DNA of 64,000 bases from Candidatus Poribacteria bacterium (GTDB lineage: Bacteria; Poribacteria; WGA-4E; PCPOR2b), in NCBI GenBank assembly GCA_965218095.1, contig OZ244587.1:4256001-4320000 (forward strand), given 5' to 3'. The translations under genes were made by a program, and so were the position numbers. Under the pieces are notes generated by a model. That model saw nothing but the letters and a program-made list of their open reading frames with translations. It did no database searches and had not been told where the DNA came from. Each line of letters starts with the position of its first letter. Within the stretch, counting starts at the first letter, position 1. Of this stretch, positions 17,121 through 54,600 are shown piece after piece.

Positions 17121-18061
17121 ACCCAAGTTGCGACCTATTCATCGAATATGTGAGTGAACTGAATATGTGAGTGAACTCAGAGCTGATTGATACTGCTAGC
17201 CAATACAAACAAGACCACTTTCAATTCAAATCCGTGTCGCGTTACTGCATGGATTGAACGTGGAAGCAGTTTGTTAATCAAACTGCCAGCCGTCTCAACA
17301 GACTTACGATGGTAATTAGCCAAGTAGGTCTCCCATGGTGGATACAGCCGCTTGGAATTCTTCTTGCGTACTGGCTTTAATTCGACTCCGACTGATGTAA
17401 CAATATCTTCTATCTCATAATTATTGTATGCTTTGTCACCATAGCCCGGTGGCAAGTCGAAGTCAAACCACTGTAACCCTTCAACGTCCCCTGTACTGGC
17501 TGGGGTCACAAAAAATTCAACAGGGTGTCGACTCGCAGTCACTAGCAGATGAACTTTCAAGCCATAGAAATACCGACGTTTGGACGCTTGATAGCCTTGA
17601 TATGCCTTATCGGTGTAGATTTTTGACCGACGAATGCGGAACAAACAGCAATTGGTATGGTATCCAGTGCATAGATTTTCTGTTGATTAAGTTGCACATA
17701 GCTTCGTCCCAAGATTTTGAACAATGTGGTGAACATCGGTTTAATTCGATGAAGTCGTCGGTTGAATCGACTTTTTGAAAGCATCTTGGGTATATAGCCA
17801 TGAGTCTTTAGAAAGTCACAAGTGGTTTGCAAGTTTGCCCCGAAGAACAACGCAGCGACGATGCCGGTGGTCATCACTTCGGCATCAGACATCTGCGTTT
17901 GTGGGTGTGGTTTTGAGTTGAGTGCTTCTAAGAGCTTGTCACAGAGATAGAAAATGGTTACAATTTGGATGTCCATGGGTTTCTCCTTTGAGGTATTATG
18001 GTTTGGATTACCTCTACTTTAACGGAAAACCCATGGATTTTCAATTACTAGCAACTTGGGT
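17121..18061 (-). mobile_element. IS982-family element with frameshifted transposase (17177-17976)
   Basis: Terminal IRs ACCCAAGTTGC(G)A / TAGCAACTTGGGT; MSDAEVMT, SKSRFNRR, YFYGLKVH, YGDKAY, RKSVET motifs split over two frames. Confidence 0.9.
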
Positions 18062-23260: not shown

Positions 23261-23289
23261 TTGACAGCATGTATCATGGGTGCTATACT
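23261..23289 (+). promoter_or_regulatory. Sigma-70 promoter of the YCF48-like gene
   Basis: TTGACA-17-TATACT with extended TG. Confidence 0.75.
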
Positions 23290-23321
23290 AAATGAAAACC
23301 ATGAAAGGAGTCATTGAATCA

Positions 23322-24353
23322 ATGTCCAAAAAGCGGTTATTCCTGTTAGGAATTATTGTATTGGCGGCGTGCATGGCAAGTGTGCTCTATGCTAGCGGAA
23401 CATGGAACATTTTACTGGAGCGGGACCCGGAGATTCGGGATTATTTTGCAATTACTTTTGTTAGCCCAAAGGAAGGTTGGGTCGCTGGGGATGCGCCTTT
23501 AGACATGGATAGTCCAGGATATATTGGTCACACCAAAGATGGTGGCAAAAGTTGGGAGAAGGCGGAAGTCCGGATCGATAAAACCCTCTCAGATATCTAC
23601 TTTGTTGATAAGAAAAACGGTTGGGCCGTCGGCGACGCCGGCATGATTGTTGGCACAAACGACGGCGGCAAGCGCTGGAACATCCAGACGAGTAAAGTCG
23701 ACAATTGGCTTTATGGTGTTCACTTCGTGAATGCGAAGATGGGCTACGCCGTTGGCAAAGGGGAAACCGTCCTCCAAACAAAAAACGGCAAAAGCTGGAA
23801 GCTTCTACGCGGTGGTGAAATTCCCAGTGGGGTCGGTGATGAGCCTGAAGGTGTTTTCTATGCCGTCCACTTTATTGATGAATTAACAGGTTGGGCAGCA
23901 GGTATTTTTGTGGATCCGACTGCTGATACGCAAAACAGCACGATAAAAAAAACCACTGATGGTGGCCAGACCTGGGTTGATCAGCCGACAAACACTGAGA
24001 TTTCTCTCAGAGATATTTTCTTCGTGGACGCCTCTAATGGATGGACGGTTGGAGATGACGGACTTGTGCTTCACACCACAAATGGCGGCGATACCTGGAA
24101 AATTCAAGCGAGTGGAACAGAGGAAAAGCTATTGAGTGTTAGCTTTGCCGACAAGAATGTGGGTTGGGCAGTCGGCGGTGATACGGGCGTCAGTGTTATC
24201 ATTCACACAACCGACAGCGGAGAAACATGGGAAATGCAGCCCATTCAGCATACCCGTATCAGCAAAGTGCCCGCAAATGGTGTTTGTGTTCTGGATGCAG
24301 ATAAGGTTTGGGTTACTGGTAACAATGGTTTCGTCGCGTCATATTCAAAGTAG
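23322..24353 (+). CDS. YCF48-related secreted beta-propeller (BNR/Asp-box repeats)
   Basis: Signal peptide; repeated F-VD-xx-GWAVG...TxDGGxxW units. Confidence 0.88.
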   Translation: MSKKRLFLLGIIVLAACMASVLYASGTWNILLERDPEIRDYFAITFVSPKEGWVAGDAPLDMDSPGYIGHTKDGGKSWEKAEVRIDKTLSDIYFVDKKNGWAVGDAGMIVGTNDGGKRWNIQTSKVDNWLYGVHFVNAKMGYAVGKGETVLQTKNGKSWKLLRGGEIPSGVGDEPEGVFYAVHFIDELTGWAAGIFVDPTADTQNSTIKKTTDGGQTWVDQPTNTEISLRDIFFVDASNGWTVGDDGLVLHTTNGGDTWKIQASGTEEKLLSVSFADKNVGWAVGGDTGVSVIIHTTDSGETWEMQPIQHTRISKVPANGVCVLDADKVWVTGNNGFVASYSK

Positions 24354-24494: not shown

Positions 24495-25661
24495 ATGAAT
24501 TTTGCAGCTCGAATGAGCCGCCTGGGGACTGAATCTGCCTTCGAGGTGCTCGCCAAAGCAAAAGGACTGGAGGCGCAAGGCAGAGACATTATCCACCTCG
24601 AAATTGGTCAGCCAGATTTTGTAACCCCCATGAATATCTGTGAGGCAGCGTTTAAGGCAATGAAGGATGGTCACACAGGATATGGACCATCTGCTGGTTT
24701 GCTGGAATTTCGTGAAATTGTTGCTGACCATATTTCGGAAACGCGGGGCGTCGAGATTCATCCGGATGAAGTCACCGTCACCTCCGGCGCCAAGCCTATC
24801 ATTTTTTTCACGATTCTGGCGCTTGTCGATGAAGGAGATGAGGTAATCTATCCGGATCCCGGGTTTCCGATTTATGAATCTGTGATCGACTTCATTAGCG
24901 GGAAGGCTGTTCCGCTTCCCTTGCGTGAGGAGGTTGATTTCCGTTTTCGGATTGATGATCTTGTTTCGGCAATTTCAGATCGGACAAAGCTGCTGATCAT
25001 CAACTCGCCCCAAAATCCAACCGGCGGCACGCTGGAAAAAAGCGATTTAGAAGCCATCACAGCGTTGGCAACCAAACACGATTTTTATGTGCTAACGGAT
25101 GAGGTTTACTCGCGGATCCTTTATGAGGGTGCTCATGAAAGCCCTATCAATCACCCTGGTATGAAGGAACGAACCATCTTGATTGATGGGCATTCTAAAA
25201 CGTACGCGATGACTGGGTGGCGGTTGGGCTACGGAATCGCTCCGAAAGAGATAGCTGACAAGATTACGCAGTTGACAATCAATTCTAACTCGTGTACCGC
25301 GACTTTCACACAAATTGCGGGGATCGAAGCCCTGAGGGGGCCGCAAGATTCTGTCACGGAAATGGTTGCCGAGTTCAAGAAACGACGGGATGTGATTGTT
25401 GACGGCCTCAATGCGATTGAAGGTGTGAGTTGCATAAAACCGCTCGGCGCTTTCTACGCGTTTCCGAATGTCACGCAACTTCCGGTTTCTTGTCAAGAAC
25501 TCTCGGACTACCTGCTTGATGAAGGGGGCGTCGCCCTGTTGCCCGGTACGGCTTTCGGCAAATTTGGCGATGGATATTTGAGGCTCTCCTATGCAAATTC
25601 ACTGGAGAATATACGCGAAGCCTTAACCTGTATGGATGCAGCAATTTCAAAGATCCGGTAG
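24495..25661 (+). CDS. PLP-dependent aminotransferase class I/II (aspartate aminotransferase-like)
   Basis: GQPDF, NSPQNPTG, DEVY, SKTYAMTGWRLG, YLRLSYA. Confidence 0.93.
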   Translation: MNFAARMSRLGTESAFEVLAKAKGLEAQGRDIIHLEIGQPDFVTPMNICEAAFKAMKDGHTGYGPSAGLLEFREIVADHISETRGVEIHPDEVTVTSGAKPIIFFTILALVDEGDEVIYPDPGFPIYESVIDFISGKAVPLPLREEVDFRFRIDDLVSAISDRTKLLIINSPQNPTGGTLEKSDLEAITALATKHDFYVLTDEVYSRILYEGAHESPINHPGMKERTILIDGHSKTYAMTGWRLGYGIAPKEIADKITQLTINSNSCTATFTQIAGIEALRGPQDSVTEMVAEFKKRRDVIVDGLNAIEGVSCIKPLGAFYAFPNVTQLPVSCQELSDYLLDEGGVALLPGTAFGKFGDGYLRLSYANSLENIREALTCMDAAISKIR

Positions 25662-25700
25662 TTGCTAAGGTCTGCATTGCTGAAGTTAGCAGGCGATATT

Positions 25701-25799
25701 ATGCACGAACGTATTTCAATTGATCCGAACGTATGCCACGGACAGGCATGTCTAGAGATAAGGAAACCGCGGGATGGAAATCCTTTCTTCGCCCCGTAA
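25701..25799 (+). pseudogene. DUF433 (antitoxin-like) N-terminal remnant
   Basis: MHERISIDPNVCHGQACL matches the DUF433 start, then diverges. Confidence 0.6.
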
Positions 25800-26700
25800 A
25801 GCAACCGCTCGTATTCCAGCAAGCACAACAAACTTAGGCCCCGGTTTTGATGTCCTTGGGCTCGCACTCCAACTTTATAGCACGGTCGAGCTTGAGGAGA
25901 TTGACGACGGCGCCGAAATTGTTATCCGTGGCATTGATTCGGAGGTGATTTCAAGCGACACCGATAACATCGCCTATCGCGCAGCCGCTTTGGTTTTTGA
26001 TTGCTATGGGTATAAACCCAAAGGGCTGAGATTGGTTTTAACGAATGGCATTCCTGCAATTCGGGGATTGGGCGGCAGCGGCACAGCAATCCTCGGTGGG
26101 CTGTTGACGGCAAACGCCCTTTGTCATGAGCCTTTTTCCCGTTCTGAATTACTCGATTTTGCCACTAAGCTCGACGGGCATCCAGATAATGTTACGGCAT
26201 CGCTGTTAGGCGGCTTAGTCGTATCCGTGATGCAAGGCCGTCACGTGCACTCAATTAAATTAGATTGTGGTTCAGAGTTGCGCGTTGTCGTGGCAATCCC
26301 TGACTTTCCATTGTCAACCAAACAGGCACGTAGCGTCTTACCCCAAACCGTTCAGTTTCCTGACGCCATCTACAACGTGAGTCGATCTTCATTCCTTGTC
26401 GCAGCAATTGCAACCGGCAATTTAGAGATGTTATCGCTTGCAATGGCAGATCGACTCCATCAACCGTATCGAACCTCCTTGATTCCTGGGTTTGATGAAG
26501 TGGCTGAATCCGCAATGTGTGCAGGTGCACTAAGTGTGGCGTTAAGTGGAGCAGGCCCAAGCATTGCGGCTTACTGCACGACATCGACGCAGGAAGTCGC
26601 TTTGCAGATGAGCCAGGCATTTGCACAGCATCAGATTTCTTGTGATGTTAAGATTCTATCTATCGATTCCATCGGCGCAGCCGTGCGAATCAGTAAATGA
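25774..26700 (+). CDS. thrB: Homoserine kinase
   Basis: PASTTNLGPGFDVLG, PAIRGLGGSG, GHPDN, DRLHQPYR, SGAGPS. Confidence 0.95.
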   Translation: MEILSSPRKATARIPASTTNLGPGFDVLGLALQLYSTVELEEIDDGAEIVIRGIDSEVISSDTDNIAYRAAALVFDCYGYKPKGLRLVLTNGIPAIRGLGGSGTAILGGLLTANALCHEPFSRSELLDFATKLDGHPDNVTASLLGGLVVSVMQGRHVHSIKLDCGSELRVVVAIPDFPLSTKQARSVLPQTVQFPDAIYNVSRSSFLVAAIATGNLEMLSLAMADRLHQPYRTSLIPGFDEVAESAMCAGALSVALSGAGPSIAAYCTTSTQEVALQMSQAFAQHQISCDVKILSIDSIGAAVRISK

Positions 26701-26771
26701 GTGAATAAAGCAAGACAAGATTCGCTGATTTTTCCCTTCCTCCTCCTTTTCTAGCCTTTCCTCAGATCAGT

Positions 26772-29534
26772 ATGTCCAATTGGTACACCCAAAAAATTCC
26801 ATACCTTCTGCATGAATTCAAGACCGACCTCGAACGTGGATTGAGTCGTGAAGAGGCGAGTGCCCAACAACGTAGATTTGGCAGCAACCAGATCCAACAG
26901 GCTCACGAAAGTTCACTGTTCATTCTCTTTCTGAAGCAATTTTCCAATTTAACGGTCATTCTCCTGTTTGTTGTTATCTGCATCTTTTTCTACTTTCAGC
27001 ATGCAATTCACGAGGCGTTGGTGCTTTTTGCTATTCTTTGCTTCCATATCCTTTGGCGATTCATTCAGAAAGGAAAAATGCACTATCAACTCCGGTCCAT
27101 CAAACAGCATTTGGAGATGAGTGTATCGGTCATTCGTGGTGGGACTGTTATCAAACTTCCACCCACGGCGATTGTCCCCGGCGATCTGTTTCTCCTTGCT
27201 GAAGGGGATTATATTGCCGCTGATGCCCGCATCGTTGATGCTAATGCCCTACTTGTTGATGAGACCTCGCTGTTTGGGACAACGACGCTCGCTGAAAAAA
27301 CCGATGAAGACATTTCTGCCCCAGGTTTGCCGCCTGAAAAACAGAGGAATATGGTTTTCGCTGGTACATACGTCCTTGAGGGAGAAGCGCGGGCAATTGT
27401 TGTTGCAACTAGCAAACAATTGGAGATAAACAATCCCAGTCGGCGTATGCCCCCGATTCTCGATTTGGATTCGGAAGTGGAAGTGCAGATGGGAATTTTT
27501 CACGACCATTTCCGGATCGCCGGTGGGATATTTGGAGGCGCAGCGATTATCGCTGCTCTGTTGTTCCAAGAGAAAAGTATCGAGGAAAACTGGAGTGAAC
27601 TCCTTTTTCTCGGATTAGGTTTTGTTATCGCTTCGATTCCTGAAGGGGTTGTTTCAACAAGTCGAGCCATCCTTGCTGAACACGCCTATAAGCTCTTAGG
27701 AAAAGGGGTGGCGATTCGTAATCTCATCAATTTGGAAAGGTTGAGCGGTGTTACGGCGGTTTGCATCGATGAAATCGGAAACTTTACGAGAAAGGAGATG
27801 ACTGCTTCGCACGTTTTTGTAGATGAACGTCTTGTGGATCGGGAAATATGGGAAGCTTGGCTGAAATCCCTTGAGAGGAGGACACCAAATGAAATTGATG
27901 AAGATTCAATCCCGACGACGTTGCCGAATTCACAGGTGCCTCCAGAATTTCCGCTGTTGATATTGCTCGCAGGCCGCTGTGCTGGCAATCGTCGCGCGGG
28001 GACGGAGCTGAATCAAACCTCTACTTTGGTGGAAGCAAGTATTGACAACACGCTAAAGCAAATTGCAGAAAAAATCGGATTTGATTTGGAGCGTTACGAT
28101 TCTGCTTTCACCAAAATTGATGAACTGCCTCAGATGCCAGAACGGCCATACAAAACGCTCGTTTTTGCGATCCAGGGGGGAAATTTTTTACATTTGATGT
28201 TCGGCGATGCAGAAGCTATTTTACAGGCTTGCCATCGCATTCAACTACATGGAACAATCGATTATATGAGCGTTAATCAGGAGGAGTTGACACGCCAAGC
28301 GATTCAATACCTATCAGATAGCAAGACCCAGGTCTTTGCCCTCGCTTATCGAAACCTGAGCACTCCTCCCTCTCAGCCGGAGATGAAGCGCAACATGACG
28401 TTTTTGGGTTTGATTGCTTTTACGCAGCTTGAGCACCCGGATTCAAAGAAGATTATCCAATCCTGTCTTGATGCTGGACTCAAAATCGTCACGATAACAG
28501 AAAAAAGCCGGAATATGGCTTCGGATATTGCGAAGGAACTCGGCATTATTCGGGATACAAACGCTGTGGTTGCGAAGGAAGATCTGGACGAGTTTAGCGA
28601 TGCGCATTATGAATCGATCGTGGATCGCTTACTTGTATATTGCCGTCCTTCTCCTGAACAGAAGTTGAATATTGTGCAACATCTGAAACGTCACGAGCAT
28701 CGCGTCGGCTTTTGGGGGAAATCTCCTCAAGATTTACGGGCAATGCGCGTTGCCGATGTGAGTTGTGCTTCTGCCTCTCATTCATCGCATGTTGTCCAAC
28801 AGCATGCGGCGTGTTTGGTACTCAAGGACGGTTTTCATATCATCGCCGATCTGCTACTTCATGTTCGGGAATCGTATCTCAACTTGAGGAGTTCGATGCG
28901 TTGGCTGCTCTCTTCCAGCCTAGCACAGTTAATCACGCTTATTGTTGGAGGTGTGCTGCCTTATCTTGAATCCATTTTTCCACTGTTAGGTAGACTACCA
29001 GCGCCTTTGACCCTTCTTCAGATTATTTGGGTTCACCTGCTCATCAATCTAATCCCACTGATGGGGCTGGGGCATGATCGTATCCGTGGAGAGTTGAGGT
29101 ATATCAGACGTCAGGAGGTTCCGCCGTTCCTCTCGAAACCTGATTTCTCCGATATGTTGTTGCGGAGTCTTGTCATTACATCAATGACCATTTTTAGCTT
29201 TGTTTTTACATTTGTGAGTGCAGAGGCAGCCAAGCAGAGCGCCCATACCGCGGCGCAAACGGCGGCATGTACAACGTTGATTTTTACACAATTGGTCTCG
29301 AACTTCCAATGCCACCGCCATTTCTGGGAATCAGTCTTCCAAAGGATAAAGGCGAATCTTCCTTTATTCTTCACCATTCTTGCGTGCATGGCGTTGCATC
29401 TGGCAATTGTCTATCTGCCAACCACACAGCAGATATTCAGTTTCTCCCCGCTTTTCAAAGCGTGGCAGTGGATACTCCCATTCTGCGGCATTTTGACGTT
29501 TTTGCCCTTGAACCTCACGCTCCAGCGACGTTAA
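26772..29534 (+). CDS. P-type II cation-transporting ATPase homologue with degenerate catalytic motifs
   Basis: GLS...FGSN, IVPGD, ADAR, IPEG, RPSPEQK architecture and about 10 TMs; DKTGT reads DEIGN, TGES reads FGTT, GDGVND reads GKSPQD. Confidence 0.85.
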   Translation: MSNWYTQKIPYLLHEFKTDLERGLSREEASAQQRRFGSNQIQQAHESSLFILFLKQFSNLTVILLFVVICIFFYFQHAIHEALVLFAILCFHILWRFIQKGKMHYQLRSIKQHLEMSVSVIRGGTVIKLPPTAIVPGDLFLLAEGDYIAADARIVDANALLVDETSLFGTTTLAEKTDEDISAPGLPPEKQRNMVFAGTYVLEGEARAIVVATSKQLEINNPSRRMPPILDLDSEVEVQMGIFHDHFRIAGGIFGGAAIIAALLFQEKSIEENWSELLFLGLGFVIASIPEGVVSTSRAILAEHAYKLLGKGVAIRNLINLERLSGVTAVCIDEIGNFTRKEMTASHVFVDERLVDREIWEAWLKSLERRTPNEIDEDSIPTTLPNSQVPPEFPLLILLAGRCAGNRRAGTELNQTSTLVEASIDNTLKQIAEKIGFDLERYDSAFTKIDELPQMPERPYKTLVFAIQGGNFLHLMFGDAEAILQACHRIQLHGTIDYMSVNQEELTRQAIQYLSDSKTQVFALAYRNLSTPPSQPEMKRNMTFLGLIAFTQLEHPDSKKIIQSCLDAGLKIVTITEKSRNMASDIAKELGIIRDTNAVVAKEDLDEFSDAHYESIVDRLLVYCRPSPEQKLNIVQHLKRHEHRVGFWGKSPQDLRAMRVADVSCASASHSSHVVQQHAACLVLKDGFHIIADLLLHVRESYLNLRSSMRWLLSSSLAQLITLIVGGVLPYLESIFPLLGRLPAPLTLLQIIWVHLLINLIPLMGLGHDRIRGELRYIRRQEVPPFLSKPDFSDMLLRSLVITSMTIFSFVFTFVSAEAAKQSAHTAAQTAACTTLIFTQLVSNFQCHRHFWESVFQRIKANLPLFFTILACMALHLAIVYLPTTQQIFSFSPLFKAWQWILPFCGILTFLPLNLTLQRR

Positions 29535-29875
29535 TCAATTCAGCTTTTACAGTGCAAATGGCTTGACCGCAAAATCTTCCAGCGTTATCGTGAAACTCCG
29601 CCATCCCCCCGTTACGGCAAACACAACGATGACTTCACAACCAACTCCGATCGTCAGCATCACCAGATTGCGCGCCAGGGGGTAATTGGGAGTCAAGCTA
29701 AACCCATCATACGAATATTTTAACTCGACAATGTTAAGTTAGACAGCAGATCCAGTTATGACGCGGCTTCTCAAGTTCGGTTGTTTGACTTCAAACCCTG
29801 ATGAAATCAGGATTTACGTGGTAATTTAACATTGTCAAATTAACATTAATTGAGTGAATTGGTACGGAGAACTTT

Positions 29876-31954
29876 ATGGCGCGGAAATACCCGATTGAAT
29901 GTGTACGAAACATCGGCATCATGGCACACATCGATGCCGGCAAAACAACCACAACAGAACGCATTTTATTCTATACAGGCAAAAAACATAAGATCGGCGC
30001 CGTAGATGATGGAACTGCGGAAATGGATTGGATGGTTCAGGAGCGTGAACGCGGCGTCACCATCACCGCTGCAGTGACGACCTGTTTTTGGCGCAATCAC
30101 ATCATTCACCTGATCGACACGCCAGGACACGTCGATTTCACGGTTGAAGTCGAACGATCGCTCCGCGTACTTGATGGCGCCGTCGCCCTATTCTGTGCAG
30201 TCGGTGGCGTTGAACCGCAATCCGAAACGGTTTGGCGTCAAGCTGAGCGCTACCACATCCCACGCATTGCTTTCGTAAACAAAATGGATCGGGTTGGTGC
30301 GAATTTTCCGCGTGTTATCGAAATGATAAAAGATCGATTAGGCACCAATCCATTACTTATTCAATTGCCAATCGGCTCTGAAGGTCAGTTCTCAGGCGTA
30401 ATCGATCTCATCCGTATGAAAGCCGTCTATTGGCATGAAGCCGATCAAGGGCAGACCTTTGATTTGGGGAACATTCCGCCAGCACTGCAAGCAGAAGCGG
30501 AAGGCGCCCGTGAGGTGATAGTTGAATCCGTTGCGAGCGAAGATGATGTGCTTCTGGAAACATATCTTGAAGGCAGGGAAATCACGGAAGCGGAACTTCG
30601 GAATGGCATTCGTATGGGAACGTTGAAAAACGCTTTCGTTCCTGTATTGTGCGGAACAGCGTTAAAGAATCAAGGCATCCAGCCGTTGCTCGACGTAGTT
30701 GTCGATTTCCTCCCCTCGCCGGTTGACGTACCGCCAATTGCGGGAATCGTCCTGAAGATGAATCGAGAGGAAGTGCGTGAGTCGAAGGATAACGCACCGT
30801 TCACCGCTTTAGCGTTCAAGGTCGCCAGTGACCCAAATGTCGATAAGATCGTTTACTGCCGCATCTACTCCGGGACGCTCAAGCGTGGGGCGGTCGTTTA
30901 CAACGTGACGAAAGACACAAAAGAGCGGGTGACGCGGATTTTGCAAATGCACGCCAACAAACGGGAGGGCTGTGATGAAGCCCACGCAGGAGACATCGTT
31001 GCACTTGTCGGGTTGAAAAGAACCATGACCGGGGACACTTTGGCAGATACCTCGCATCCAGTTCTGCTGGAATCAATGGCCTTTCCGGAACCAGTGATTT
31101 CTGTAGCCCTTGAACCGAGGTCTGAGAGGGATAAGGATAAGCTGGAAGCGACACTTCAGGTTCTGATGGAAGAGGATCCGACCTTTTCGGTAAAAATTGA
31201 CCAAGAAACCGGGCAGAGGGTGATTTCGGGCATGGGCGAGCTTCATCTGGAGATCTTGACAGATCGACTGCTTCGTGAGTTCAGGATCAATGCCCGCGTA
31301 AGTAAATTGCAGGTCGCCTATCGTGAGACGATCAGCCGGGTTGCCGAAGCCCAAGGCAAATATATCCACCAAATCGATAACGAGGGCATCTATGGGGACG
31401 TGATACTAAGGTTGGAAGCTCTGCCAAGAGGAGAAGGGTTTGAATTTGTGGATGAAAGCGACGAAACAAAGATTCCTCGTCAGTATGTTCCCGCAATTGA
31501 AAGTGCCGTGAAAAGCGCAATGTCGAATGGGGTCCTAACTGGCTTCCCGATGCAAGACATCAAAGCGGTTCTCGTTGGTGGTTCATACCATGAGACAGAT
31601 TCGTCGGAGATTGCCTTTGAAGCCGCCGCTGTTGCTGCTTTTGAAAATGCCGCCGAAAAAGCCTCCCCCGTTCTGTTGGAGCCAATCATGAAAATTCAAG
31701 TCATCGCTCCGAGCGAGCACATTGGAAAAGTGATTGGCGATCTCAATTCACGTCGCGCTCAGATTACCGAAATCGGGACCGTCGGAACGGCGGAATCTAT
31801 CGATTCCGATGTCCCGTTAGCGCGGATGTTTCAGTACACAACGGATCTGCGCTCGCTGACTCAGGGACGGGGCACGTTCACGATGGAATTCTCCCATTAC
31901 AACGTTGCGCCTGCCACCACACGAGATGCTGTTGTGAATAAACCGCTGTTTTAG
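29876..31954 (+). CDS. fusA: Elongation factor G (stand-alone copy)
   Basis: [50 protein letters not shown]. Confidence 0.95.
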
Positions 31955-41681: not shown

Positions 41682-41778
41682 GCTGTCACTTATTTGAGTT
41701 ATGCCTTGTGTAAGGAAGGTTCAGGCCCTTCAACAATTTCAATCGAGAATTGTGAATCCGGAGGTTACAATATCGAGT

Positions 41779-42111
41779 ATGGCAGGAGATGCTTTAGGTT
41801 TAGTTGAAACTAGAGGGTTCGTCGCAAGCGTCGAAGCGGCTGATGCAATGGTCAAAGCAGCAAATGTTCAGCTCATCGGGTATGAAAAGATCGGTGGGGG
41901 ATATGTGACGGTCATGGTCCGTGGCGACGTTGGGGCTGTCAAAGCGGCGACAGATGTTGGTGCAGAAGCAGCCGCGCGGGTCGGTGAAGTGATATCCGTC
42001 CATGTCATCCCAAGGCCGCATGCAGAAGTTGAATCGATTTTATCCTCTCAGGGACAGTCCGAGAACAATACATTATCTATTGAAGTCGCCGGGGAGGAAT
42101 CATTAAGTTAA
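41779..42111 (+). CDS. Bacterial microcompartment shell hexamer (BMC-H; PduA/EutM/CcmK type) with acidic C-terminal tail
   Basis: ALGLVETRG...[11 protein letters not shown]...GDVGAVKAA...HVIPRPH. Confidence 0.95.
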
Positions 42112-42123
42112 GGAAAATAGCGC

Positions 42124-42831
42124 ATGAATGACAAGGCACTCATTGAGCTGGTCACTCATAAAGTGCTTGAGCAATTACAACAGGGTGAGCCCTGTGGTGG
42201 CTGCGCTTTACGGATGTGCGCCGCCGGGCACCGTGCATGCGACGCCGCCGTCCAACAAAAAAAGATTCCTATCGGTGTTTCGGCAAGGCATGCCCATGTC
42301 ACCCAGAAACACCTGGAAATTCTCTACGGTAAGGGGTATCAATTGACTGTTCACGCCCCTTTATACCAACCCGCCGCTTTTGCGGCGAAAGAAACGCTAA
42401 CCATCGTTGGGCGACGTATGCGGGCTATCGAAGGGGTTCGTATCCTCGGTCCCGTGAGGGACTATTCTCAGGTCGAATTGGCACGTACCGATGCGATCCG
42501 TTTGGGACTCGATCTACCGATTCGTGATTCAGGTGATATTGCCGGTTCAGCGCCGATTGTGTTAATTGGTCCCAAGGGTTCTGTTCATTTAAAAGAAGGC
42601 GCAATCTGTGCGACACGGCATATTCACATGACCCCGCAAGATGCGGAAAGCTTAGGCGTACGTAAAGGGGATCTGTTGAAAATTCGTATTCCCGGCGAAC
42701 GGGCATTGACCTTTGAAAACATTCGCCCGAAAATATCACCGAGCTATGTGCTGCAGATGCACCTGGATACGGATGATTCCAACGCTGCTGGTCTACGTGG
42801 AGGAGAAGGCGTTGAGCTGCTGAAAGATTAG
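42124..42831 (+). CDS. pduL: Phosphate propanoyltransferase PduL with N-terminal encapsulation peptide
   Basis: GVSARHAH, RILGPVR...QVE...TD...LG...RDSG, RHIHM, MHLDTDDSNA; amphipathic N-terminal helix LIELVTHKVLEQL. Confidence 0.92.
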   Translation: MNDKALIELVTHKVLEQLQQGEPCGGCALRMCAAGHRACDAAVQQKKIPIGVSARHAHVTQKHLEILYGKGYQLTVHAPLYQPAAFAAKETLTIVGRRMRAIEGVRILGPVRDYSQVELARTDAIRLGLDLPIRDSGDIAGSAPIVLIGPKGSVHLKEGAICATRHIHMTPQDAESLGVRKGDLLKIRIPGERALTFENIRPKISPSYVLQMHLDTDDSNAAGLRGGEGVELLKD

Positions 42832-42841
42832 GGGAATCCAA

Positions 42842-43606
42842 GTGGCAATCAGTTCAGAAATCATTCGACGAATCGAGGAGGAAGTCAAGAAAGTCCTCAC
42901 ACAACGGGGAATTGCTTCAGCATCCTCCCCATCAGATCAGCGTATTCTGGCGATATTTGATGCTGCTCAAATTGATCTCGCTCGTCCATTGCAGCAGCTT
43001 GACAGGTGCATTCAACACGGCTATGTCGTCACGGCGATTTTGTCAGATCTTGCTGCCAGGCTTTTGGACATATCCCGCATTCGTTCTGTATGCGGAAACG
43101 AACGTGTTTTTGTATCCAGCGAAATTACGAACCTTCAGTCTTTCACTAAAGATTTCTTCTCCTCAATTGTTATCCTTATTTTATCTTACCCGATGGCAGC
43201 CAAACTCACCCTGGGAATGGCAGATACACCGTGTACTTACCTCATTTTTCAAGCGATGCTTCGCAGAGATAGAATCATCGCAACGTCTGATGCGTTTGAA
43301 ATCTTAGCTGAATCTGAGAGCATCTCTGAGATTTCAAAGCTCGGACAAAATTACATCAAAACCCTTTCAAACTTTGGGATTCAATTTGTGACCATGGATC
43401 GGCTCGGTGAAACAATTTTAAGCGACGATCCTATGAGTTTTAGCTCGGTGGATTCAAGGCATGGGAAAAACGTGATCAGCGCCTCGGTGATTGCCAACCT
43501 TACGCCGGGTGTGCGCGAATTTGTGTACTCGAATCCGGCGATTATCACGCCGCTTGCACATGATTTGGCAGTCCAAAAGGGCATCCGACTCGTGGCAAAG
43601 GATTAA
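42842..43606 (+). CDS. BMC-associated flavoprotein-like protein with encapsulation-peptide-like N-terminus
   Basis: IIRRIEEEVKKVL amphipathic helix; MAAKLTLGMADT flavoprotein-like motif; C-terminal IITPLAHDLA..KGI motif seen in BMC loci. Confidence 0.7.
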   Translation: MAISSEIIRRIEEEVKKVLTQRGIASASSPSDQRILAIFDAAQIDLARPLQQLDRCIQHGYVVTAILSDLAARLLDISRIRSVCGNERVFVSSEITNLQSFTKDFFSSIVILILSYPMAAKLTLGMADTPCTYLIFQAMLRRDRIIATSDAFEILAESESISEISKLGQNYIKTLSNFGIQFVTMDRLGETILSDDPMSFSSVDSRHGKNVISASVIANLTPGVREFVYSNPAIITPLAHDLAVQKGIRLVAKD

Positions 43607-43922: not shown

Positions 43923-45530
43923 ATGAAATTCCACATCCAGGTTGTTATTTTACTCGTGCTAACAATCTTCTTCTTGACATTATTAACAAATGTTGCCCAG
44001 GCAGACCATGAATATGATTACCTTTCAGATCGCCTGAGTCGTGAACATCGGGATGCAGGCGATGTTGAGGACTGGATCGAGCGAGGCAATGCGACTGTTA
44101 CCGCAAGCCCTCGTTTTGAAGATGGTATACGCTTGGCGGCGTGGGCAAGCGGATCGGATAAGAAGGGAAACTACGAATTTGCAATAGCCAGTGCGATTTA
44201 TCTCTTTGAAATTCCTCGACAGGCTCAGTACATCGAGATTCTGGTGCGCTACCGAGGGGAACCTCACAAATCGGACTTTGAGGATTATGAGGAAATTGCT
44301 GGTCGCGTTTGGATCCGCAATACCAAACGTGAATATTCCCGCCGGCGCTATGATGACGAGAATGAGGAGGAAACACTATACGGCAATACCTTCGTTTTGC
44401 GCGCAAAGCGCCGATCAGAGACAATAAAAATTGCAACGGCAGGGCATGTCGATAACGATCTACTTGAGATGCACATTGTTGCTGAAGATGGTGAACAGCT
44501 TGGCATAGAGTATATTGATGTTTCAACCTACCGACGACAGCCTGACGTCCGTGTCGTTCATCGTTATGCTCGAGATTATCGGTGGCGCCCCTGGCATAGA
44601 TATACTTATCTATACTTTTACGATGGTCCATTTTACTACTGTACCGATTTGGGTTACTATATTCGATGGAGTTATCCGATTTATGACCATCACTACCTCT
44701 CTATTCGCTACGCTTACGGCGACTACCTCCATCATTACTATCGCCGCTACCCCGATCACTACTATCGTTCCTATTCCAACAATGTGCATGTCCATGTTGA
44801 TAACGCTGTTAAAACGCAACGACGACTCAATCGCTGGACAGCGACACATGAAACCACCCGACGCGAATATACGCGAAGTCGATTGTCAACAACCTCATCA
44901 AAAACGAACAAAGCAAATGTACAGACCCGTGTTCGCTCATTAATTAGAGAAAACCGTCGGGAACCAGTTCTTGCTGATCGAGTTATCCAACGCGCTACTG
45001 TTTCTCGCAAACGGAGACGAATCGATGCAGAAGTTGAACTGAATACGGCAATAAAGGGGCAACGCGATTTCTCACGTTCCATTGATGACGCATCCACACG
45101 ATCCTACCGCGCAACTCAGGAGATACTAAAACACAAGCGGTATTCATCTGGCCGAAGGGATATGCGATCAAGGACAGAATCCCGTCTCTACCCCTACGAT
45201 CGTTTTCAGCTTTCTACAAAACAGAAGCGTTATTCATCTGACCAGGAGGATACCCGATCAAATGCTGAACGTCGTGCACGTCTCTATAATCGTTCGCGAT
45301 CTTCGGCAAGTCGACCGAGTGCAGCGCCTTCACGCAGCCAATCTCCAGGTTTAAGCAGCGGTACAAACAAACGCAAGCACTCATCTTCTTCCTCCTCACA
45401 CCGCCAAAAATCAACAACCCCGCAGGCACCGCAGGCAAGCTCAAGTTCATCCAGCCAGAGTGACGATGACGAAGAAAAAGATCGCAACCGCAATACCACA
45501 AGGACACAAAAACGTAAGCGAAGAAATTAG
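43923..45530 (+). CDS. Secreted hypothetical protein with Tyr/His-rich segment and long Arg/Ser-rich disordered tail
   Basis: AGGAGG RBS, signal peptide ending AQA, globular N-half, low-complexity C-half; followed by a terminator. Confidence 0.8.
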   Translation: MKFHIQVVILLVLTIFFLTLLTNVAQADHEYDYLSDRLSREHRDAGDVEDWIERGNATVTASPRFEDGIRLAAWASGSDKKGNYEFAIASAIYLFEIPRQAQYIEILVRYRGEPHKSDFEDYEEIAGRVWIRNTKREYSRRRYDDENEEETLYGNTFVLRAKRRSETIKIATAGHVDNDLLEMHIVAEDGEQLGIEYIDVSTYRRQPDVRVVHRYARDYRWRPWHRYTYLYFYDGPFYYCTDLGYYIRWSYPIYDHHYLSIRYAYGDYLHHYYRRYPDHYYRSYSNNVHVHVDNAVKTQRRLNRWTATHETTRREYTRSRLSTTSSKTNKANVQTRVRSLIRENRREPVLADRVIQRATVSRKRRRIDAEVELNTAIKGQRDFSRSIDDASTRSYRATQEILKHKRYSSGRRDMRSRTESRLYPYDRFQLSTKQKRYSSDQEDTRSNAERRARLYNRSRSSASRPSAAPSRSQSPGLSSGTNKRKHSSSSSSHRQKSTTPQAPQASSSSSSQSDDDEEKDRNRNTTRTQKRKRRN

Positions 45531-45651: not shown

Positions 45652-46351
45652 GGTTCTGTTGACATTTGAGTATAAGGTTGTGGCATAATAGAAGAATGAT
45701 GCCAATAACCTTACCCGATGACCAATGGAAAAAGATATACTCGTTTCTTCTAACTTGTCCCAACATCTATGTTGGCAACGAAGCGACAACACGCCGCTTT
45801 ATCGAAACTGTTCTCTGGGCGACCCGTAGCGGGGCTCAATGGCGGATTCTGCCAGACACCTATGGTAAATCGAACACCCTCTACAAGCGGTTTGCTCGGT
45901 GGTGCGACAAAGGGGTCTTCACACAGATGCACCACCACTTCGCCGCCGACCCCGATATCGAGTCGCTTATTGTGGACAGTACAATCATTCGAGCGCACCC
46001 GTCTGCGGCGGGTGCCGAAAAAAAAGGGTGGCACTGAAAACCAAGCGTTAGGTCGGTCTCGCGGGGGATTCAGTACAAAAATTCACATCACCGTTGACGG
46101 CCTGGGTAATCCACTAAGAATTCATCTGACACCCGGTCAAAGAAACGACATAGCGGAAGCAGAAGCGTTGATACTTGGATATAAAAGCGAGTATGTGATT
46201 GGAGACAAGGGATATGACTCCGACAATTTTATCGCGGTTATTGAGGCGAATGGAGCGATTGCGGTGATACCGCCAAAAAGTCATCGTGTGGATCAAAGAG
46301 ATTACGACAAACATCTGTACAAAGAGAGACATCTGGTTGAATGTTTCATTA
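45652..46351 (+). mobile_element. IS5-family (IS427-like, two-ORF -1 frameshift) copy 1, 3'-truncated
   Basis: IR GGTTCTGTTGACATTT; GAQWRILP, IVDSTIIRAH, slippery A8[20 protein letters not shown]; cut at a TA by copy 2. Confidence 0.9.
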
Positions 46352-47172
46352 GGTTCTGTTGACATTTGAGTATAAGGTTGTGGCATAATAGAAGAATGAC
46401 GCCAATAACCTTACCTGATGAACAATGGAATAAGATATACCGGTTTCTTCTAAGCTGTCCCACCATCTATGTTGGCGACGAAGCTGCTACACGCCGCTTC
46501 GTCGAAGCGGTTCTCTGAGTGACTCGTAGCGGGGCTCAATGGAGACTTCTACCAGACACCTATGGCAAATGGAACACCCTCTACAAGCGTTTTGCTCGAT
46601 GGTGCGACAAAGGTATCTTCACACAGATGCACCCCCACTTCGCCTCTGACCCCGATATCGAGTCGCTTATTGTGGACAGTACCATCTGCCGCGCTCACCC
46701 GTCTGCGGCGGGCGCCTTAAAAAAAACGGTGGGACTGAAAACCAAGCATTAGGTCGGTCTCGGGGCGGTTTCAGTACAAAAATTCACATCACAGTTGACG
46801 GACTAGGCAATCCGCTAAGAATTCATCTGACACCCGGTCAGAGACATGACATAACTGAGGCGGAAGGGTTGATAATCGGATATAACAGTGAATATGTGAT
46901 TGGAGACTAAGGGGTACGATTCGGACGCTTTTATCGCGGTTATTGAGGCAAATGGAGCGATTGCGGTGATACCGCCAAAAAGTCATCGTGTTGACCAAAG
47001 AACGTATGACAAACACTTATACAAAGAAAGACATCGGGTTAAATGTTTCATCAACAAGATAAAATGGTATCGTCGTATCTTCTCTCGGTTTGAGAAGCTA
47101 GCTGTCCGTTATTTTGGATTTCTCAGCTTTGTCTCCACTCTTATATGGCTCCCTTGAAATGTCAACAGAACC
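46352..47172 (+). mobile_element. IS5-family copy 2, full length but with nonsense and frameshift mutations
   Basis: Both IRs (GGTTCTGTTGACATTT / AAATGTCAACAGAACC), TA flanks; TGG to TGA near 46516. Confidence 0.9.
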
Positions 47173-50204: not shown

Positions 50205-51024
50205 GGTTCTGTTGACATTTGAGTATAAGGTTGTGGCATAATAGAAGAATGATGCCAATAACCTTACCCGATGACCAATGGAAAAAGATATACTCGTTTC
50301 TTCTAACTTGTCCCAACATCTATGTTGGCAACGAAGCAACAACACGCCGCTTTATCGAAGCTGTTCTCTGGGCGACCCATAGCGGTGCTCAATGGAGACT
50401 TCTGCCAGACACCTATGGTAAATCGAACACCCTCTATAAGCGTTTTGCTCGGTGGTGCGACAAAGGGGGCTTCACACAGATCCACCACCACTTCGCCGCC
50501 GACCCCGATATCGAGTCGCTTATTGTGGACAGTACAATCATTCGAGCGCACCCGTCTGCGGCGGGTGCCGAAAAAAAAGGGTGGCACTGAAAACCAAGCG
50601 TTAGGTCGCTCTCGCGGGGGATTCAGTACAAAAATTCACATCACAGTTGACGGCCTGGGTAATCCACTAAGAATACATCTGACGCCCGGTCAAAGAAACG
50701 ACATAGCGGAAGCAGAAGCGTTTATACTTGGATATAAAAGTGAGTATGTGATTGGAGACAAGGGATATGACTCCGACAATTTTATCGCGGTTATTGAGGC
50801 GAATGGAGCGATTGCGGTGATACCGCCAAAAAGTCATCGTGTGGATCAAAGAGATTACGACAAACATCTGTACAAAGAGAGACATCTGGTTGAATGTTTC
50901 ATTAACAAGATAAAATGGTATCGCCGCATCTTCTCTCGGTTCGAGAAGTTAGCTATCCGTTATTTTGGATTTCTCAGCTTTGTCGCCACTCTTATTATGG
51001 CTCCCTTGAAATGTCAACAGAACC
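50205..51024 (+). mobile_element. IS5-family copy 3, near-intact
   Basis: Both IRs, TA duplication, orfA/orfB with A8G slippery site; a 1-nt insertion near the 3' end; interrupts a small degraded ORF. Confidence 0.92.
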
Positions 51025-51181
51025 TAGTACAAGATCGATTAATCCATTTACGGACGACCATTTTTCGTGCAGAAGATAATCTTTACTCAGATTAATCCAC
51101 GATATAGAAGAGATTAATTGTGATCTCATTTGATCTGAAAGGAGTGTCGTCTCAATGTGAAGAATTTAATAGAAAAAACAC

Positions 51182-51210: not shown

Positions 51211-51631
51211 AAAGGTTACTTTTTTTGAGGTATAAATTTATTAAAAAAAAGCATTGACCAAATACAGTTAGGAGTTACGCACTTCAAATTGAACAAACCG
51301 TATTATGCCTGCATTTCGAATCCTGAATCCAGAACAAGATGCAAGATACAGGATGCAGACATAGCTTGAGTCTGTAGAATTAGTTGCGTAAGTCCTATAC
51401 AGGTTAAACCTGAGTTTTTTCGCCTTTTTAATGAATCCTTTTTAAAGGAGGTTACGATATGTTGTACTACTGACGCAAGTTGAAATAGGTGCGGGATCGA
51501 TAAATGGTCAAAAATTTGACAATTGCAGTCAATTCCCAAATTGTTCAACTTGATTCTTGATGAACCTGATTACGAAAGTTTTATACCTTAACTTTTACAT
51601 CAAGTAATTTATGATTTCCTCAAGGAGGCAA

Positions 51632-54600
51632 ATGAAAATAATGCAGGTTTCAAAACACTCACCTGATGTGTTGTTTATTGTAGCCGGGTTAATAGGCTGT
51701 TTCGTGCTTTATGGATGCGCCACAACCAGCCTTGGTCCACAGGAACCGCTTTTACCAACAGTCGAAGGGCAAGCGCATTTTTCGGCTCGCTTCCAATTAG
51801 AAGAAGAACCACAATTCTTCTATGACTTGTTCGGTAAAGAACTCCTCGAAGGTAATGAAGTTTACAATTACCGTGAACAGAAACAGTTTGATAGGAACGG
51901 AGAACTGATTGTGGGTTGGACCGGTCAGCTTGATAGTGAAAGGTTCTCCGCACAGTTAGACCGTCAGATCCTAACTGAAGATAACTTCCGTGGTAGATTT
52001 ACACAGTTCGCAATCGGGGACAACATGCGTATTAAACCCGCAACGCTATTTCCGAATCGATATATCATCCACAAGACGGAATTCGATGGTTTCCGGTGGG
52101 ATATTTCTTTCTCACAAGAACGTCACCTTTTTACCTTGTTGAATTCGCGTATTTCTAACCCGGTACAGTTGTCTGATGCAGCAGCGAACCTTGCACCAAC
52201 GCTTGGTCGCCGGAACGGTTTGAGCGACGATGTCGGTCTTCGTCATATTGAGAATGCCCGCTTGATCGGATTCCGCGCGCAAGGGTTGCTGGGAGATGTG
52301 TTCCGCGTCGGATTCACCTACGTCAATCTCCACAAAGAACACCCAGAAAGAGTTGAGAATCCTCTGTTCGGCGGCACGGTGGCGAATACGCCTCCGGAGC
52401 GTATCGTTATTGTCTTCCGCGACGATTCACCGGAAGATAATCACGTTGACATCTTAGAGCACGACCTTGAGAGACCCGAACACGTAAGATTTATTCAGGG
52501 CGGGGTCGGCGTTGCAGTTAAGGGGCTAAAGGTGCATCTTGTCACACAACCCCTTGGCGGTTTTCCTGAGCAGGGTCCTGACCGTCCGCCGGGACGTGAG
52601 CGCACGAGAACGATTCCAGTTTTTCTCGACGCTATTACTGCCGTAGAGGGTAGCAATGACCCCCGTGAGACCCCTGATGGCTACAAAATTGTCGAGGGGT
52701 TCGATAAAATGCAGTACGTATTAGACTTTAACGATCCTGACCCGCTTAGTACTGCGGACGAACCGATCGACCCCCGAACAGTAAAGTCAATCGAGTTTGA
52801 GATGGACGTTGCAGGCGACTATAATATCGCTTTCATCGGATTTAGCGAAGCAAACAAGTCAGAGGATCCGCTAGGGGCAGAATGGATTAAAACCGAGGAC
52901 GGTCATATCGAAATGCCTTACCGTGATGTGATTGAAGCCCCCGGCAATTATGGTCAATCAGACCACTATACGGATAACAGGGCAGCGCTTCGCGATGCCC
53001 CAAGTAGATGGAAGGATGAAGGGAAACCGCGTAAGATTCGGTATCGCTATGGTGCGGCACGTGCTGGAGTGATGTATGGTCTTGATCTTGAAGGAACTCT
53101 GTTTAATACCTTTGTCCGTGCGCATTACTCGATTAATGGCAAATTTAAGCAGTATCCAACCATTCCCAAAGACCAAGTTGGTTTCAGCCGGACGAATCCT
53201 GAAATTGAAGGGGCTAGCATCACCATAGATGAGCGCGAAACCCTGGACGATGGGGTTACACCTAACCCTACCTTCCGAGTCGCCCTGGATGCCAATGGTA
53301 TCCCGACATACTCTGTAACGGAGGGAGAAAGATTTGAAGCCAAGTTAAATGGGAATCCGGATAGTGACGGAGAGATGGGCCGTGAAACAGCGTGGTTTAT
53401 TAACCTCAAGCAGCGTTTCGGCAAGATCTTCCTCGAAGAGACTGTCTACCACATTGATCCGGGTTACACGACAACCTATCATAACTTCGGTGCAAACGAC
53501 TCAAGGGATGCGACCTATTCTCTTGAACGAACTCCTGAATCTGGTGCGGAAATCCTTCCGTATGATCAAATCGATTATCAACTTGTCGAAGACGATGATG
53601 ACGACGACGACTGGCCAGATAGCATCGATTTTGACGGCGTCCTGCCGCAAGCCGATGACCGTGACCAGAATGGCATCCTCGATTTCCAAGAAGACTTCCT
53701 CATCTTTGAGGCAGATCCACCGGTTTTTGAAGATCTCCTTGACCTGAATAACAACGGGATTGTTGATTCATTAGAAGATGATTTTGAACCGCAATATGAG
53801 TACGGTATCGACCGCGAAGGATACCATATCGCCGCTAGCTACGACTTACTCGAGAACTTGACCGTCAAACTGGGCTGGTTAAACGAAAGCGAGATTTCCA
53901 GCCGGCGGAAAAATAATTCAAAATACATTCATCTTATTTATCAGCGCGACATTCCAGATTTTGGAACGATTCTGTTCCAGAATCGTTTGCTCCGCGTTGA
54001 GGATGATATTCCGGAGTACTCGATTACCTTGCGCCCCGGTGAACTGGCTACCGTGCAACAAAGTGATGCACTTGACTTCTTCAACGCGCGAGTGAATCTG
54101 ACAAGCATCCAGTTTCTTTACACTGCGATTCCAAACTTGCAACTTGAAACGAAGCTCCTCGTTGACTGGCGGAAGCAGTTGGAACCGGATCCCGAGGAAG
54201 CGATTGCGAAGGATTTTCCGCAAGATGACATAACATTAGAGAAGGATGATCGCGTCGATTTCATGGTGCCGGACGAGCAGGTGCGTGCGGATGGTGAGAA
54301 GCGCGCATCCCCGTTCTATCCGGATCATGGGCTTAACCCACTAGATCCAGAAGATACCGGCTTAATCTATAATCCAGATAACTGGATACCCCGCCGTTAT
54401 ACGGAAAAGACTGTCCGTAACCAGGTCACCATTATCAAAGCTAGATATGAAATTCCATTAGGCGATTTGCCAGGGGTTGACAAAATTGGTGAAGATTTAA
54501 CACTGACACCGATGGTTAAATATATCTGGACTCGGGCCTTCGATCGCGCCGCTGAGAAGATTGGCGAGGTACTTAATCCCACTCTATTTGTTCCTGACTC

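Follow-up and report, generated by a model that had tools for sequence, protein, structure and literature searches.

A Motif-Erased P2A-Type ATPase Homolog Conserved Across the Poribacteria

Introduction

What is left for a P-type ATPase to do once every motif of its catalytic cycle has been rewritten? The question is raised by a gene at positions 26772 to 29534 of a 64,000-nucleotide window (the whole stretch of DNA analyzed here, positions 4,256,001 to 4,320,000 of contig OZ244587.1) from a genome of the Poribacteria, which are abundant sponge symbionts. Existing annotations on genes of this family read "Ca2+-transporting ATPase", which is probably wrong, judging from the motifs described below. 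The original prediction described the product instead as a pseudo-pump, a full-length P-type ATPase with erased catalytic motifs that is kept by long-term selection as a non-phosphorylating scaffold, sensor, passive carrier or regulatory subunit.

A Complete and Uninterrupted P2A-Type Body

The gene that encodes the pseudo-pump is as follows.

26772..29534, + strand: pseudo-P2A ATPase gene (protein P0001), 920 amino acids, with actuator (A), phosphorylation (P) and nucleotide-binding (N) domains and ten membrane helices

As predicted, the open reading frame (ORF) is a single run of 920 codons without a stop, and each of the motif changes listed beforehand lies at the position given for it. The sequence is reproduced by a 5098-base contig from a public run, possibly from the same sample as the window, which covers positions 24662-29759 with one different letter and no gaps; an assembly error across the gene was ruled out on this basis. 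Contigs from three sponge RNA runs of one study also cover the gene in part, and these were not counted as evidence because they cover non-coding flanks too and may reflect DNA carry-over.

The protein matches PF00690, PF00122, PF00702 and PF00689 above the Pfam cut-offs, the four domains (N-terminal, actuator, HAD, C-terminal membrane) following one another as in canonical pumps. The best NCBIfam model was the PMR1-type P2A model TIGR01522 (266 bits against a cut-off of 798); TIGR01116 gave 173 bits against 703, which places the protein below the curated P2A threshold, and the superfamily-level model TIGR01494 gave 107 bits, above its cut-off of 62.3. The curated P2A cut-off is a weak test, as the intact P2A pump of genome G063 also falls below that of TIGR01522 (678 of 798 bits). 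Structure prediction, which had been suggested as a check, returned the whole P-type fold with ten helices. The AlphaFold2 model, built from a 42-row alignment, had a mean predicted local distance difference test (pLDDT) score of 79.7 and a predicted template modeling (pTM) score of 0.68, and its best Foldseek matches were Na,K-ATPase, SERCA and SPCA1 (E about 1e-44 to 1e-48). The model is closer to E1-like than to E2 structures (template modeling scores up to 0.73 versus about 0.55), a resemblance that we did not use because a state predicted from a 42-row alignment is no evidence. The solved sequence nearest to the family profile is that of Listeria LMCA1 (1.6e-155). With the A, P and N domains and the M1-M6 core in order, ten helices and a P2A sequence affinity, the pseudo-pump is a P2A ATPase by descent and fold; the P2A ion site is absent.

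Loss of Catalytic and Ion-Binding Motifs

Motif positions in the family were aligned to the canonical motifs of intact P2A pumps. A site table compared 38 diverse family members with 121 intact pumps shorter than 1060 amino acids (13 longer matches were excluded), and a near set comprised 102 close homologs and the 18 next, more distant canonical matches. The functional labels of canonical residues follow the established P-type mechanism, in part as given in PMC10654040. The altered sites in the window are listed here.

27273..27284, + strand: FGTT replacing TGES of the actuator; dephosphorylation Glu (residue 170) lost
27639..27647, + strand: PEG in helix M4; Pro invariant, ion-binding Glu variable
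27768..27782, + strand: DEIGN replacing DKTGT (residues 333-337)
28200..28214, + strand: FGDAE replacing KGAPE; nucleotide-pocket Lys of the N domain lost, Gly kept
28425..28436, + strand: QLEH replacing the DPPR hinge, from the alignment to canonical pumps
28497..28505, + strand: TEK replacing TGD; Gly to acid family-wide, candidate built-in plug of the phosphate pocket
28662..28664, + strand: Lys631, position of the catalytic Lys of the P domain
28716..28733, + strand: GKSPQD replacing GDGVND; Mg-binding Asp and Asn lost, last Asp kept
28911..29048, + strand: M5 (SSSLAQ, start 28911) to M6 (WVHLLIN, start 29028); carboxylates gone, neutral polar residues left

None of the 102 close homologs carries DKTGT, TGE[ST], GDGxND, TGD[HNY], KGA[PVT] or DP[PL]R, whereas the 18 next canonical matches contain these motifs in 18, 18, 18, 17, 13 and 13 cases, respectively. 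The expectation that orthologs share the altered motifs, rather than retaining an intact DKTGT or TGES, was thus borne out. In the site table, the actuator Glu is found in 0 of 38 family members and in all 121 canonical pumps, and the pocket Lys of the N domain in 1/38 versus 116/121; Gly478 is kept throughout (38/38), and the Phe at position 454 is also lost. The first Asp and the Asn of GDGxND each persist in two of the 38 members and the last Asp (Asp654) in 37. The Gly of TGD is present in a single member and is replaced by Asp or Glu in 34/38 diverse and 98/102 near sequences, this acid often being paired with a Glu at the DKTGT Lys (19/38), while T/S576 is kept in 34/38. Position 631 is Lys in 26 and Arg in 11 of the 38.

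At the phosphorylation site, residue 333 is Asp in 19 members, Asn in 12, Glu in 5 and Gln in 2, and the Lys, first Thr and second Thr of DKTGT remain in 4, 4 and 1. The Asp at 27768 is indeed retained in this protein, as had been noted, and in 86/102 near homologs, but not family-wide. The same applies to PEG, which stands in this sequence but fails as a family trait: its Pro is present in 38/38, its Glu in just 8/38 (in the near set, Glu in 79 and Asp in 18 of 102). The arguments that a retained Asp leaves phosphorylation possible and that a retained PEG leaves the ion site in place were both rejected for the family on these counts.

The predicted loss of the M5/M6 ion ligands extends to the family, with the M5 Glu and M6 Asp at 0/38, the M5 Asn at 2/38 and the M6 Asn at 11/38; the M5 Glu by itself is not diagnostic, as LMCA1 carries Ala there in the alignment. 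No phylum-wide conserved membrane acid was found across the family alignment. Neutral polar residues stand at these sites in near homologs (Q719 at the M5 Glu site in 101/102, H755 at the M6 Asn site in 95/102), which are constant in the main order but not in family f8, and the mean number of Asn, Gln, Ser, Thr and His residues per helix in M4, M5, M6 and M8 is above that of canonical pumps.

Lacking DKTGT, the actuator TGES Glu, the TGD and GDGxND ligands and the N-domain Lys, all of which mark an active P-type ATPase, the pseudo-pump very probably does not run the phosphorylation cycle, as judged from its motifs and the known P-type mechanism. Under that mechanism, productive ATP binding, formation and hydrolysis of an aspartyl-phosphate and Ca2+ pumping would be impossible. 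A still-active pump with rewired chemistry, for which the remaining Asp, Thr, Lys and Asp would suffice for phosphorylation, could draw on the Asp333 of this protein and most near homologs and on the kept Thr576, Lys631 and Asp654. We consider it very unlikely: the Asp site is Asn, Glu, Gln or Ser in whole sub-lineages (19/38 diverse and 16/102 near), the ratio of nonsynonymous to synonymous substitution rates (dN/dS) does not rise where the Asp is missing (0.14 in a genus g5 pair, both with Asn), and the protein has lost the Glu needed for dephosphorylation together with the Mg ligand and the residues of the ATP pocket.

Overall, 84 positions that are invariant in canonical pumps are lost and 37 are kept. 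Most of those retained serve the fold, and 18 lie in the actuator region. The family keeps the actuator core, the M4 Pro (38), Glu322 in the P domain (36/38), K/R631 (37), Arg/Lys699 at the base of M5 and Asn862. A few family-specific residues are found as V/F-V-D at 349-351, W711, L748, R798, Q846, R849 and L911-P912. Mean pairwise identity (family/canonical) is 0.38/0.43 in the A domain, 0.28/0.29 in M7-10 and 0.26/0.32 in the N domain, compared with 0.30/0.59 in the P domain, 0.20/0.41 in M1-2, 0.23/0.45 in M3-4 and 0.33/0.54 in M5-6. The P domain, M1-2 and M3-4 thus show roughly half the conservation of intact pumps and M5-6 a smaller drop, whereas A, N and M7-10 are close to normal; on these alignments, the relaxation is centered on the catalytic and transport core.

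Distribution and Phylogeny

In the order to which the window belongs, 158/159 genomes have a pseudo-pump match; the one genome without it (G084) has a completeness of 81%, and its ortholog of the secreted propeller described below does not reach a normal score either. Phylum-wide, a match at E 1e-10 was found in 175/176 genomes, a count that includes intact pumps. A motif-erased copy is present in all 59 genomes whose motifs were inspected directly, covering families f1-f10 (10 of 11 families); three of these copies (G064, G069, G070) are partial or split, and the remaining f2 genomes were not checked individually. The eleventh family (G063) is represented by contig-end fragments, of which the N-terminal piece is 64-67% identical to f10 copies and the C-terminal piece has an f10-like acidic tail, the catalytic region being unassembled. 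Full-length orthologs inspected are about 900-960 amino acids long. The basal members (L054 and L058 of f10, L112 of G063) are extended at the C terminus by an acidic tail of about 30-45 residues, which is missing from other members.

When 1.84 billion representatives were searched with the family profile, the best 150 of 110,279 matches consisted of 16 DKTGT-less proteins at the head of the ranking and 134 intact pumps after them. No family member outside the Poribacteria was identified among these best 150, and the ESM Atlas returned ordinary P2A clusters only. The tree places 14 new DKTGT-less proteins in the Poribacteria clade; a taxon name was available for one of the ten looked up, P0133-P0135 are without a matching genome, and the homologs that bear names are Candidatus Poribacteria. 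Among the listed matches, seven proteins of 1500-1700 amino acids with two DKTGT motifs (P0136, P0138, P0140, P0147, P0184, P0238, P0166) look like tandem or partly duplicated P2 pumps, and six of 1400-1600 amino acids (P0153, P0156, P0170, P0201, P0256, P0257) combine a single DKTGT with a long N-terminal extension.

In a FastTree phylogeny of 81 rows, the erased proteins lie on one side of a branch that separates them from the intact pumps (support 99), and an IQ-TREE mixture model on 25 rows recovered the same split (support 100), with subgroups mostly tracking genome families. Long branches can attract each other; on these trees, the erased proteins form one clade, a reading also favored because shared gene order and shared derived residues agree with it. 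Family f10, from another class, is the least eroded (NKKG for DKTG; GDSAND in G061) yet already lacks the Asp, which suggests that the chemistry was lost early. We propose that the chemistry of a P2A (Ca2+/Mn2+-type) pump may have disappeared in a single event, no later than the last common ancestor of Poribacteria, and that the gene would thereafter have persisted in the core genome, in single copy, because of a structural role that needs no ATP.

Selection on the Pseudo-Pump Gene

Within genus g4, the median dN/dS of the pseudo-pump was 0.115 (range 0.08-0.19; 185/190 pairs past the dS filter), with values of 0.09-0.14 in every domain, and a codon model on 21 sequences gave an omega of 0.20. 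Across families f1-f5, f8 and f10, 13 pairs gave dN/dS of 0.10-0.24 (two with dS >1.5). For neighboring genes, the values were 0.08-0.16 in thrB, close to the pseudo-pump, and 0.03-0.11 in an aminotransferase gene, which is lower. Distant pseudo-pump orthologs share 24-38% identity where thrB keeps 44-66%. By these measures, the pseudo-pump is maintained, less tightly than an enzyme. It combines lost catalytic residues with an intact frame, low dN/dS and lineage-wide presence, as expected of a pseudoenzyme under selection.

A decaying pseudogene or an assembly artefact might account for the faster long-range divergence relative to the neighboring enzymes, and for the ortholog of G069 (L092, G069:C15:24779-27092; genome 64% complete), which is in two frames with a break just before the phosphorylation-site region. 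We give this explanation practically no credence, given dN/dS values well below 1, no internal stops among the 150 matches listed, and the agreement of the second contig. Recent decay was rejected on the same grounds and on the erasure of the motifs in all close homologs (DKTGT, TGE[ST] and GDGxND in 0/102), and the view that long-term selection shaped the gene holds.

Other P-Type ATPases in Poribacteria Genomes

The genome of the window encodes two other P-type ATPases only, both of the heavy-metal P1B type with CPC. Among 150 near-complete genomes, exactly two PF00122 matches were found in 122, three or more in 26 and one in 2 (G032 and G065, each with one weak match only); such matches are not strict copy numbers, and the second gene was typed in G000 only. 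Intact P2A pumps turned up in G061-G063 alone and Mg-type pumps in G001 and G062 alone, so that most Poribacteria appear to be without a working P2 pump.

These counts bear on the suggestion that the pseudo-pump is a subunit, whether regulatory or dominant-negative, of some active P2 paralog. Intact P2A genes do coexist with it in G061-G063, which belong to the other class. In most genomes, however, no active P2 paralog is seen, and here both other P-type ATPases are P1B, which makes such a subunit highly improbable. Of the roles originally suggested, the regulatory subunit is disfavored, whereas a non-phosphorylating pump homolog is supported; scaffold, sensor and passive carrier are inseparable by sequence alone.

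Gene Neighborhood

The pseudo-pump is the last gene of a same-strand block, preceded, in order, by a secreted propeller, an aminotransferase and thrB.

23261..23289, + strand: sigma-70-like promoter candidate ahead of the four-gene block, 11 of 12 with an extended -10
23292..24353, + strand: secreted YCF48-like BNR-repeat propeller (PF14870), first gene of the block
24495..25661, + strand: class I/II pyridoxal phosphate-dependent aminotransferase (aspartate aminotransferase-like), in the conserved block
25774..26700, + strand: thrB, homoserine kinase (TIGR00191 above cut-off), the usual direct upstream neighbor

The thrB gene lies upstream of the pseudo-pump in 16/20 order-level loci and 8/14 deeper loci. 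In family f5 (loci L084 and L085), both enzyme genes are absent from the locus and the propeller is directly upstream of the pseudo-pump. A propeller match was found in 176/176 genomes of this non-photosynthetic phylum at E 1e-25, paralogs included, and its orthologs have signal-peptide-like N-termini by eye; a lipoprotein signal was considered and rejected, as the Cys of the LAAC present in this genome is not kept in most of 23 orthologs (by eye). The promoter search returned 12 sites versus 9.0 +/- 3.0 in shuffled sequences and is suggestive only; since the candidate ends at 23289, the true start of the propeller is probably a later ATG.

The block is old and not obligatory. In genus g4, the propeller is about 20-30 kb away on the opposite strand in 17 genomes, far away in one and on other contigs in two; an inversion-like rearrangement parts it from the pseudo-pump in these 17/20 (e.g., G022:C5:4451789-4483809). 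The idea that the pseudo-pump must share an operon with thrB, the aminotransferase or the propeller was rejected, this linkage being broken in g4, some f3 genomes, g25 and f10, and the block may simply reflect core genes that rearrange slowly. No regulator or kinase gene was conserved as a neighbor across families in the loci compared. An elongation factor G gene (29876-31954) lies directly downstream, outside a ribosomal-protein operon, and is beside the pseudo-pump in 0/20 relative loci.

Proposed Function

As the best reading, held tentatively and at somewhat less than an even chance, we suggest that the pseudo-pump is a non-phosphorylating, self-plugged (locked) membrane scaffold. The acid gained at the TGD Gly, a position which we take to be where the phosphate oxygens are held in real pumps, would pair with the Lys/Arg kept at position 631 and with Asp654 at the end of GDGxND, filling the empty phosphate pocket and holding the headpiece in one shape. 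The protein would then serve as a membrane-anchored platform for a partner protein, offering as surfaces the actuator core and the support helices M7-M10, which are conserved as in real pumps, and the few family-specific residues found where M5, M7, M8 and M10 end on the cytoplasmic side (W711, R798, Q846, R849, L911-P912). The secreted propeller is the best partner candidate, though a weak one. We favor a scaffold because an acid next to the retained Lys/Arg and Asp would occupy the inactive site and immobilize the headpiece, because the actuator and support helices, not the transport core, are where selection persists, and because there is no phylum-wide conserved membrane ligand site.

The same membrane residues can be read in other ways. 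In an ATP-independent carrier or leak, the ten-helix bundle would alternate or stay open with the head as a gate, moving a neutral solute, protons or a lipid downhill. The kink Pro in M4 and the neutral polar residues that replace the acids would suit such a function, and thrB (upstream in 24/34 loci) and the aminotransferase as neighbors would hint at an aspartate-family amino acid. These polar residues are not phylum-wide, however, with Leu, Met, Thr or Lys at the M5 site in 17/38 and nine different residues at the M6 Asp site; M1-M4 are the least conserved parts, and the gene block does not hold together in genus g4 or in some others. We regard a carrier as unlikely.

Alternatively, the pseudo-pump may be a transceptor-like sensor, in which M4/M5 and the A and P domains move in response to a ligand, a lipid state or a partner in the periplasm, and a cytoplasmic effector reads the resulting shape. 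The elements of coupling are kept (M4 Pro, Glu322, Arg/Lys699 and a near-intact actuator core), the three cytoplasmic domains remain at full length under selection, and the propeller is the one neighbor still adjacent in f5 once the enzyme genes are gone. Against this, the protein has no fused output domain, no regulator or kinase is conserved beside it across families, and no membrane ligand site is conserved phylum-wide, and we consider a sensor rather improbable. In the broader form of an ATP-independent carrier, channel or receptor, with a self-plugged phosphate pocket, neutral polar swaps and the propeller as a beta-subunit-like partner, an alternative to the scaffold is conceivable, if on the unlikely side.

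Several observations weigh against the scaffold. The retention of the M4 Pro, of Glu322 and of neutral polar residues in M4-M6 and M8 fits a carrier or sensor equally well. The partner of the platform is at best a candidate, and gene order is breakable: the propeller is adjacent in 0/20 g4 genomes, and the block is absent at 4/14 deeper loci, including g25 and f10. Family-specific positions conserved at >=70% number 14, which is thin for a conserved binding surface, and the per-domain identity ratios are rough because the canonical set covers many phyla. Carrier and sensor stay live because the M4 kink, the coupling residues and the neutral polar core survive. If instead the broader reading as a carrier, channel or receptor is correct, the pseudo-pump would be a free-standing P-type protein that operates entirely outside the phosphorylation cycle by which its superfamily is defined, encoded in the core genome of an entire phylum.

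Other Features of the Window

A microcompartment-type cluster at 41701-43606 comprises a shell-protein-like ORF (by eye), a phosphate propanoyltransferase (PF06130) and an unassigned 254-amino-acid ORF. Two ORFs with signal-peptide-like starts have no Pfam match (43923-45530, 535 amino acids; 51611-54961, 1116 amino acids), and the longer one lies upstream of ExbB/ExbD-like genes. Insertion-sequence transposases were identified by Pfam at 421-1302 (IS1595-type) and 50322-51095 (DDE-type), and by eye at 17557-17976 and 45769-46362. These transposases, some apparently broken, are probably what the original prediction meant by recent decay elsewhere in the window.

Comparison With Known Systems

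The pseudo-pump shares its domain order, ten helices and fold with Listeria LMCA1 (PDB 9euq/6zhf), human SPCA1 and PMR1-type pumps (TIGR01522), yet it lacks their catalytic motifs and membrane carboxylates despite structural matches at E <1e-43, and its family forms a clade of its own outside the canonical P2A pumps sampled.

P-type ATPases are defined by the phospho-aspartate cycle, and the dead ones that we found in print are cyclase-fused protist modules. In the alveolate P4-ATPase/guanylyl cyclase fusions (Plasmodium GC-beta, Cryptosporidium, gregarines and Tetrahymena), both DKTGT and the actuator Glu have changed or disappeared, and a role in regulation, localization or structural coupling has been proposed for the ATPase module, according to passages of PMC13466520 and PMC6592433. 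These fusions are the nearest published precedent in that, like the pseudo-pump, they keep a P-type body after motif loss. They are, however, eukaryotic, P4-derived and fused to an active cyclase, which explains their retention, whereas the pseudo-pump is bacterial, P2A-derived and free-standing. Pfam found no cyclase domain in the pseudo-pump and P4 ancestry was not found, no search having been aimed at longer fused forms.

Transport-independent scaffold roles have been proposed for P4A/P4B ATPases, and transceptor ideas raised, in PMC10654040; these concern moonlighting of flippases, and the passage describes no motif-erased lineage. In a UniProt survey, 22 of 9,634 P-type ATPases, 17 of them bacterial, were without an intact DKTGT, which was found in 99.77% (passage of PMC3896382). 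The variants described in that passage are single point changes, possibly errors, whereas in the pseudo-pump every motif is replaced across the phylum. A literature search, with most subscription journals outside its coverage, found no published description of the pseudo-pump family.

The pseudo-pump is thus distinct from known dead P-type bodies in being bacterial, free-standing, P2A-derived and phylum-wide. A single-copy, free-standing dead P2A protein of this distribution shows that the body of a pump can itself be the selected function, and, with the scaffold and transceptor ideas of PMC10654040 in view, the natural series from the partly eroded f10 copies (NKKG, GDSAND) to fully rewritten ones lets the P-type scaffold be probed without its chemistry.

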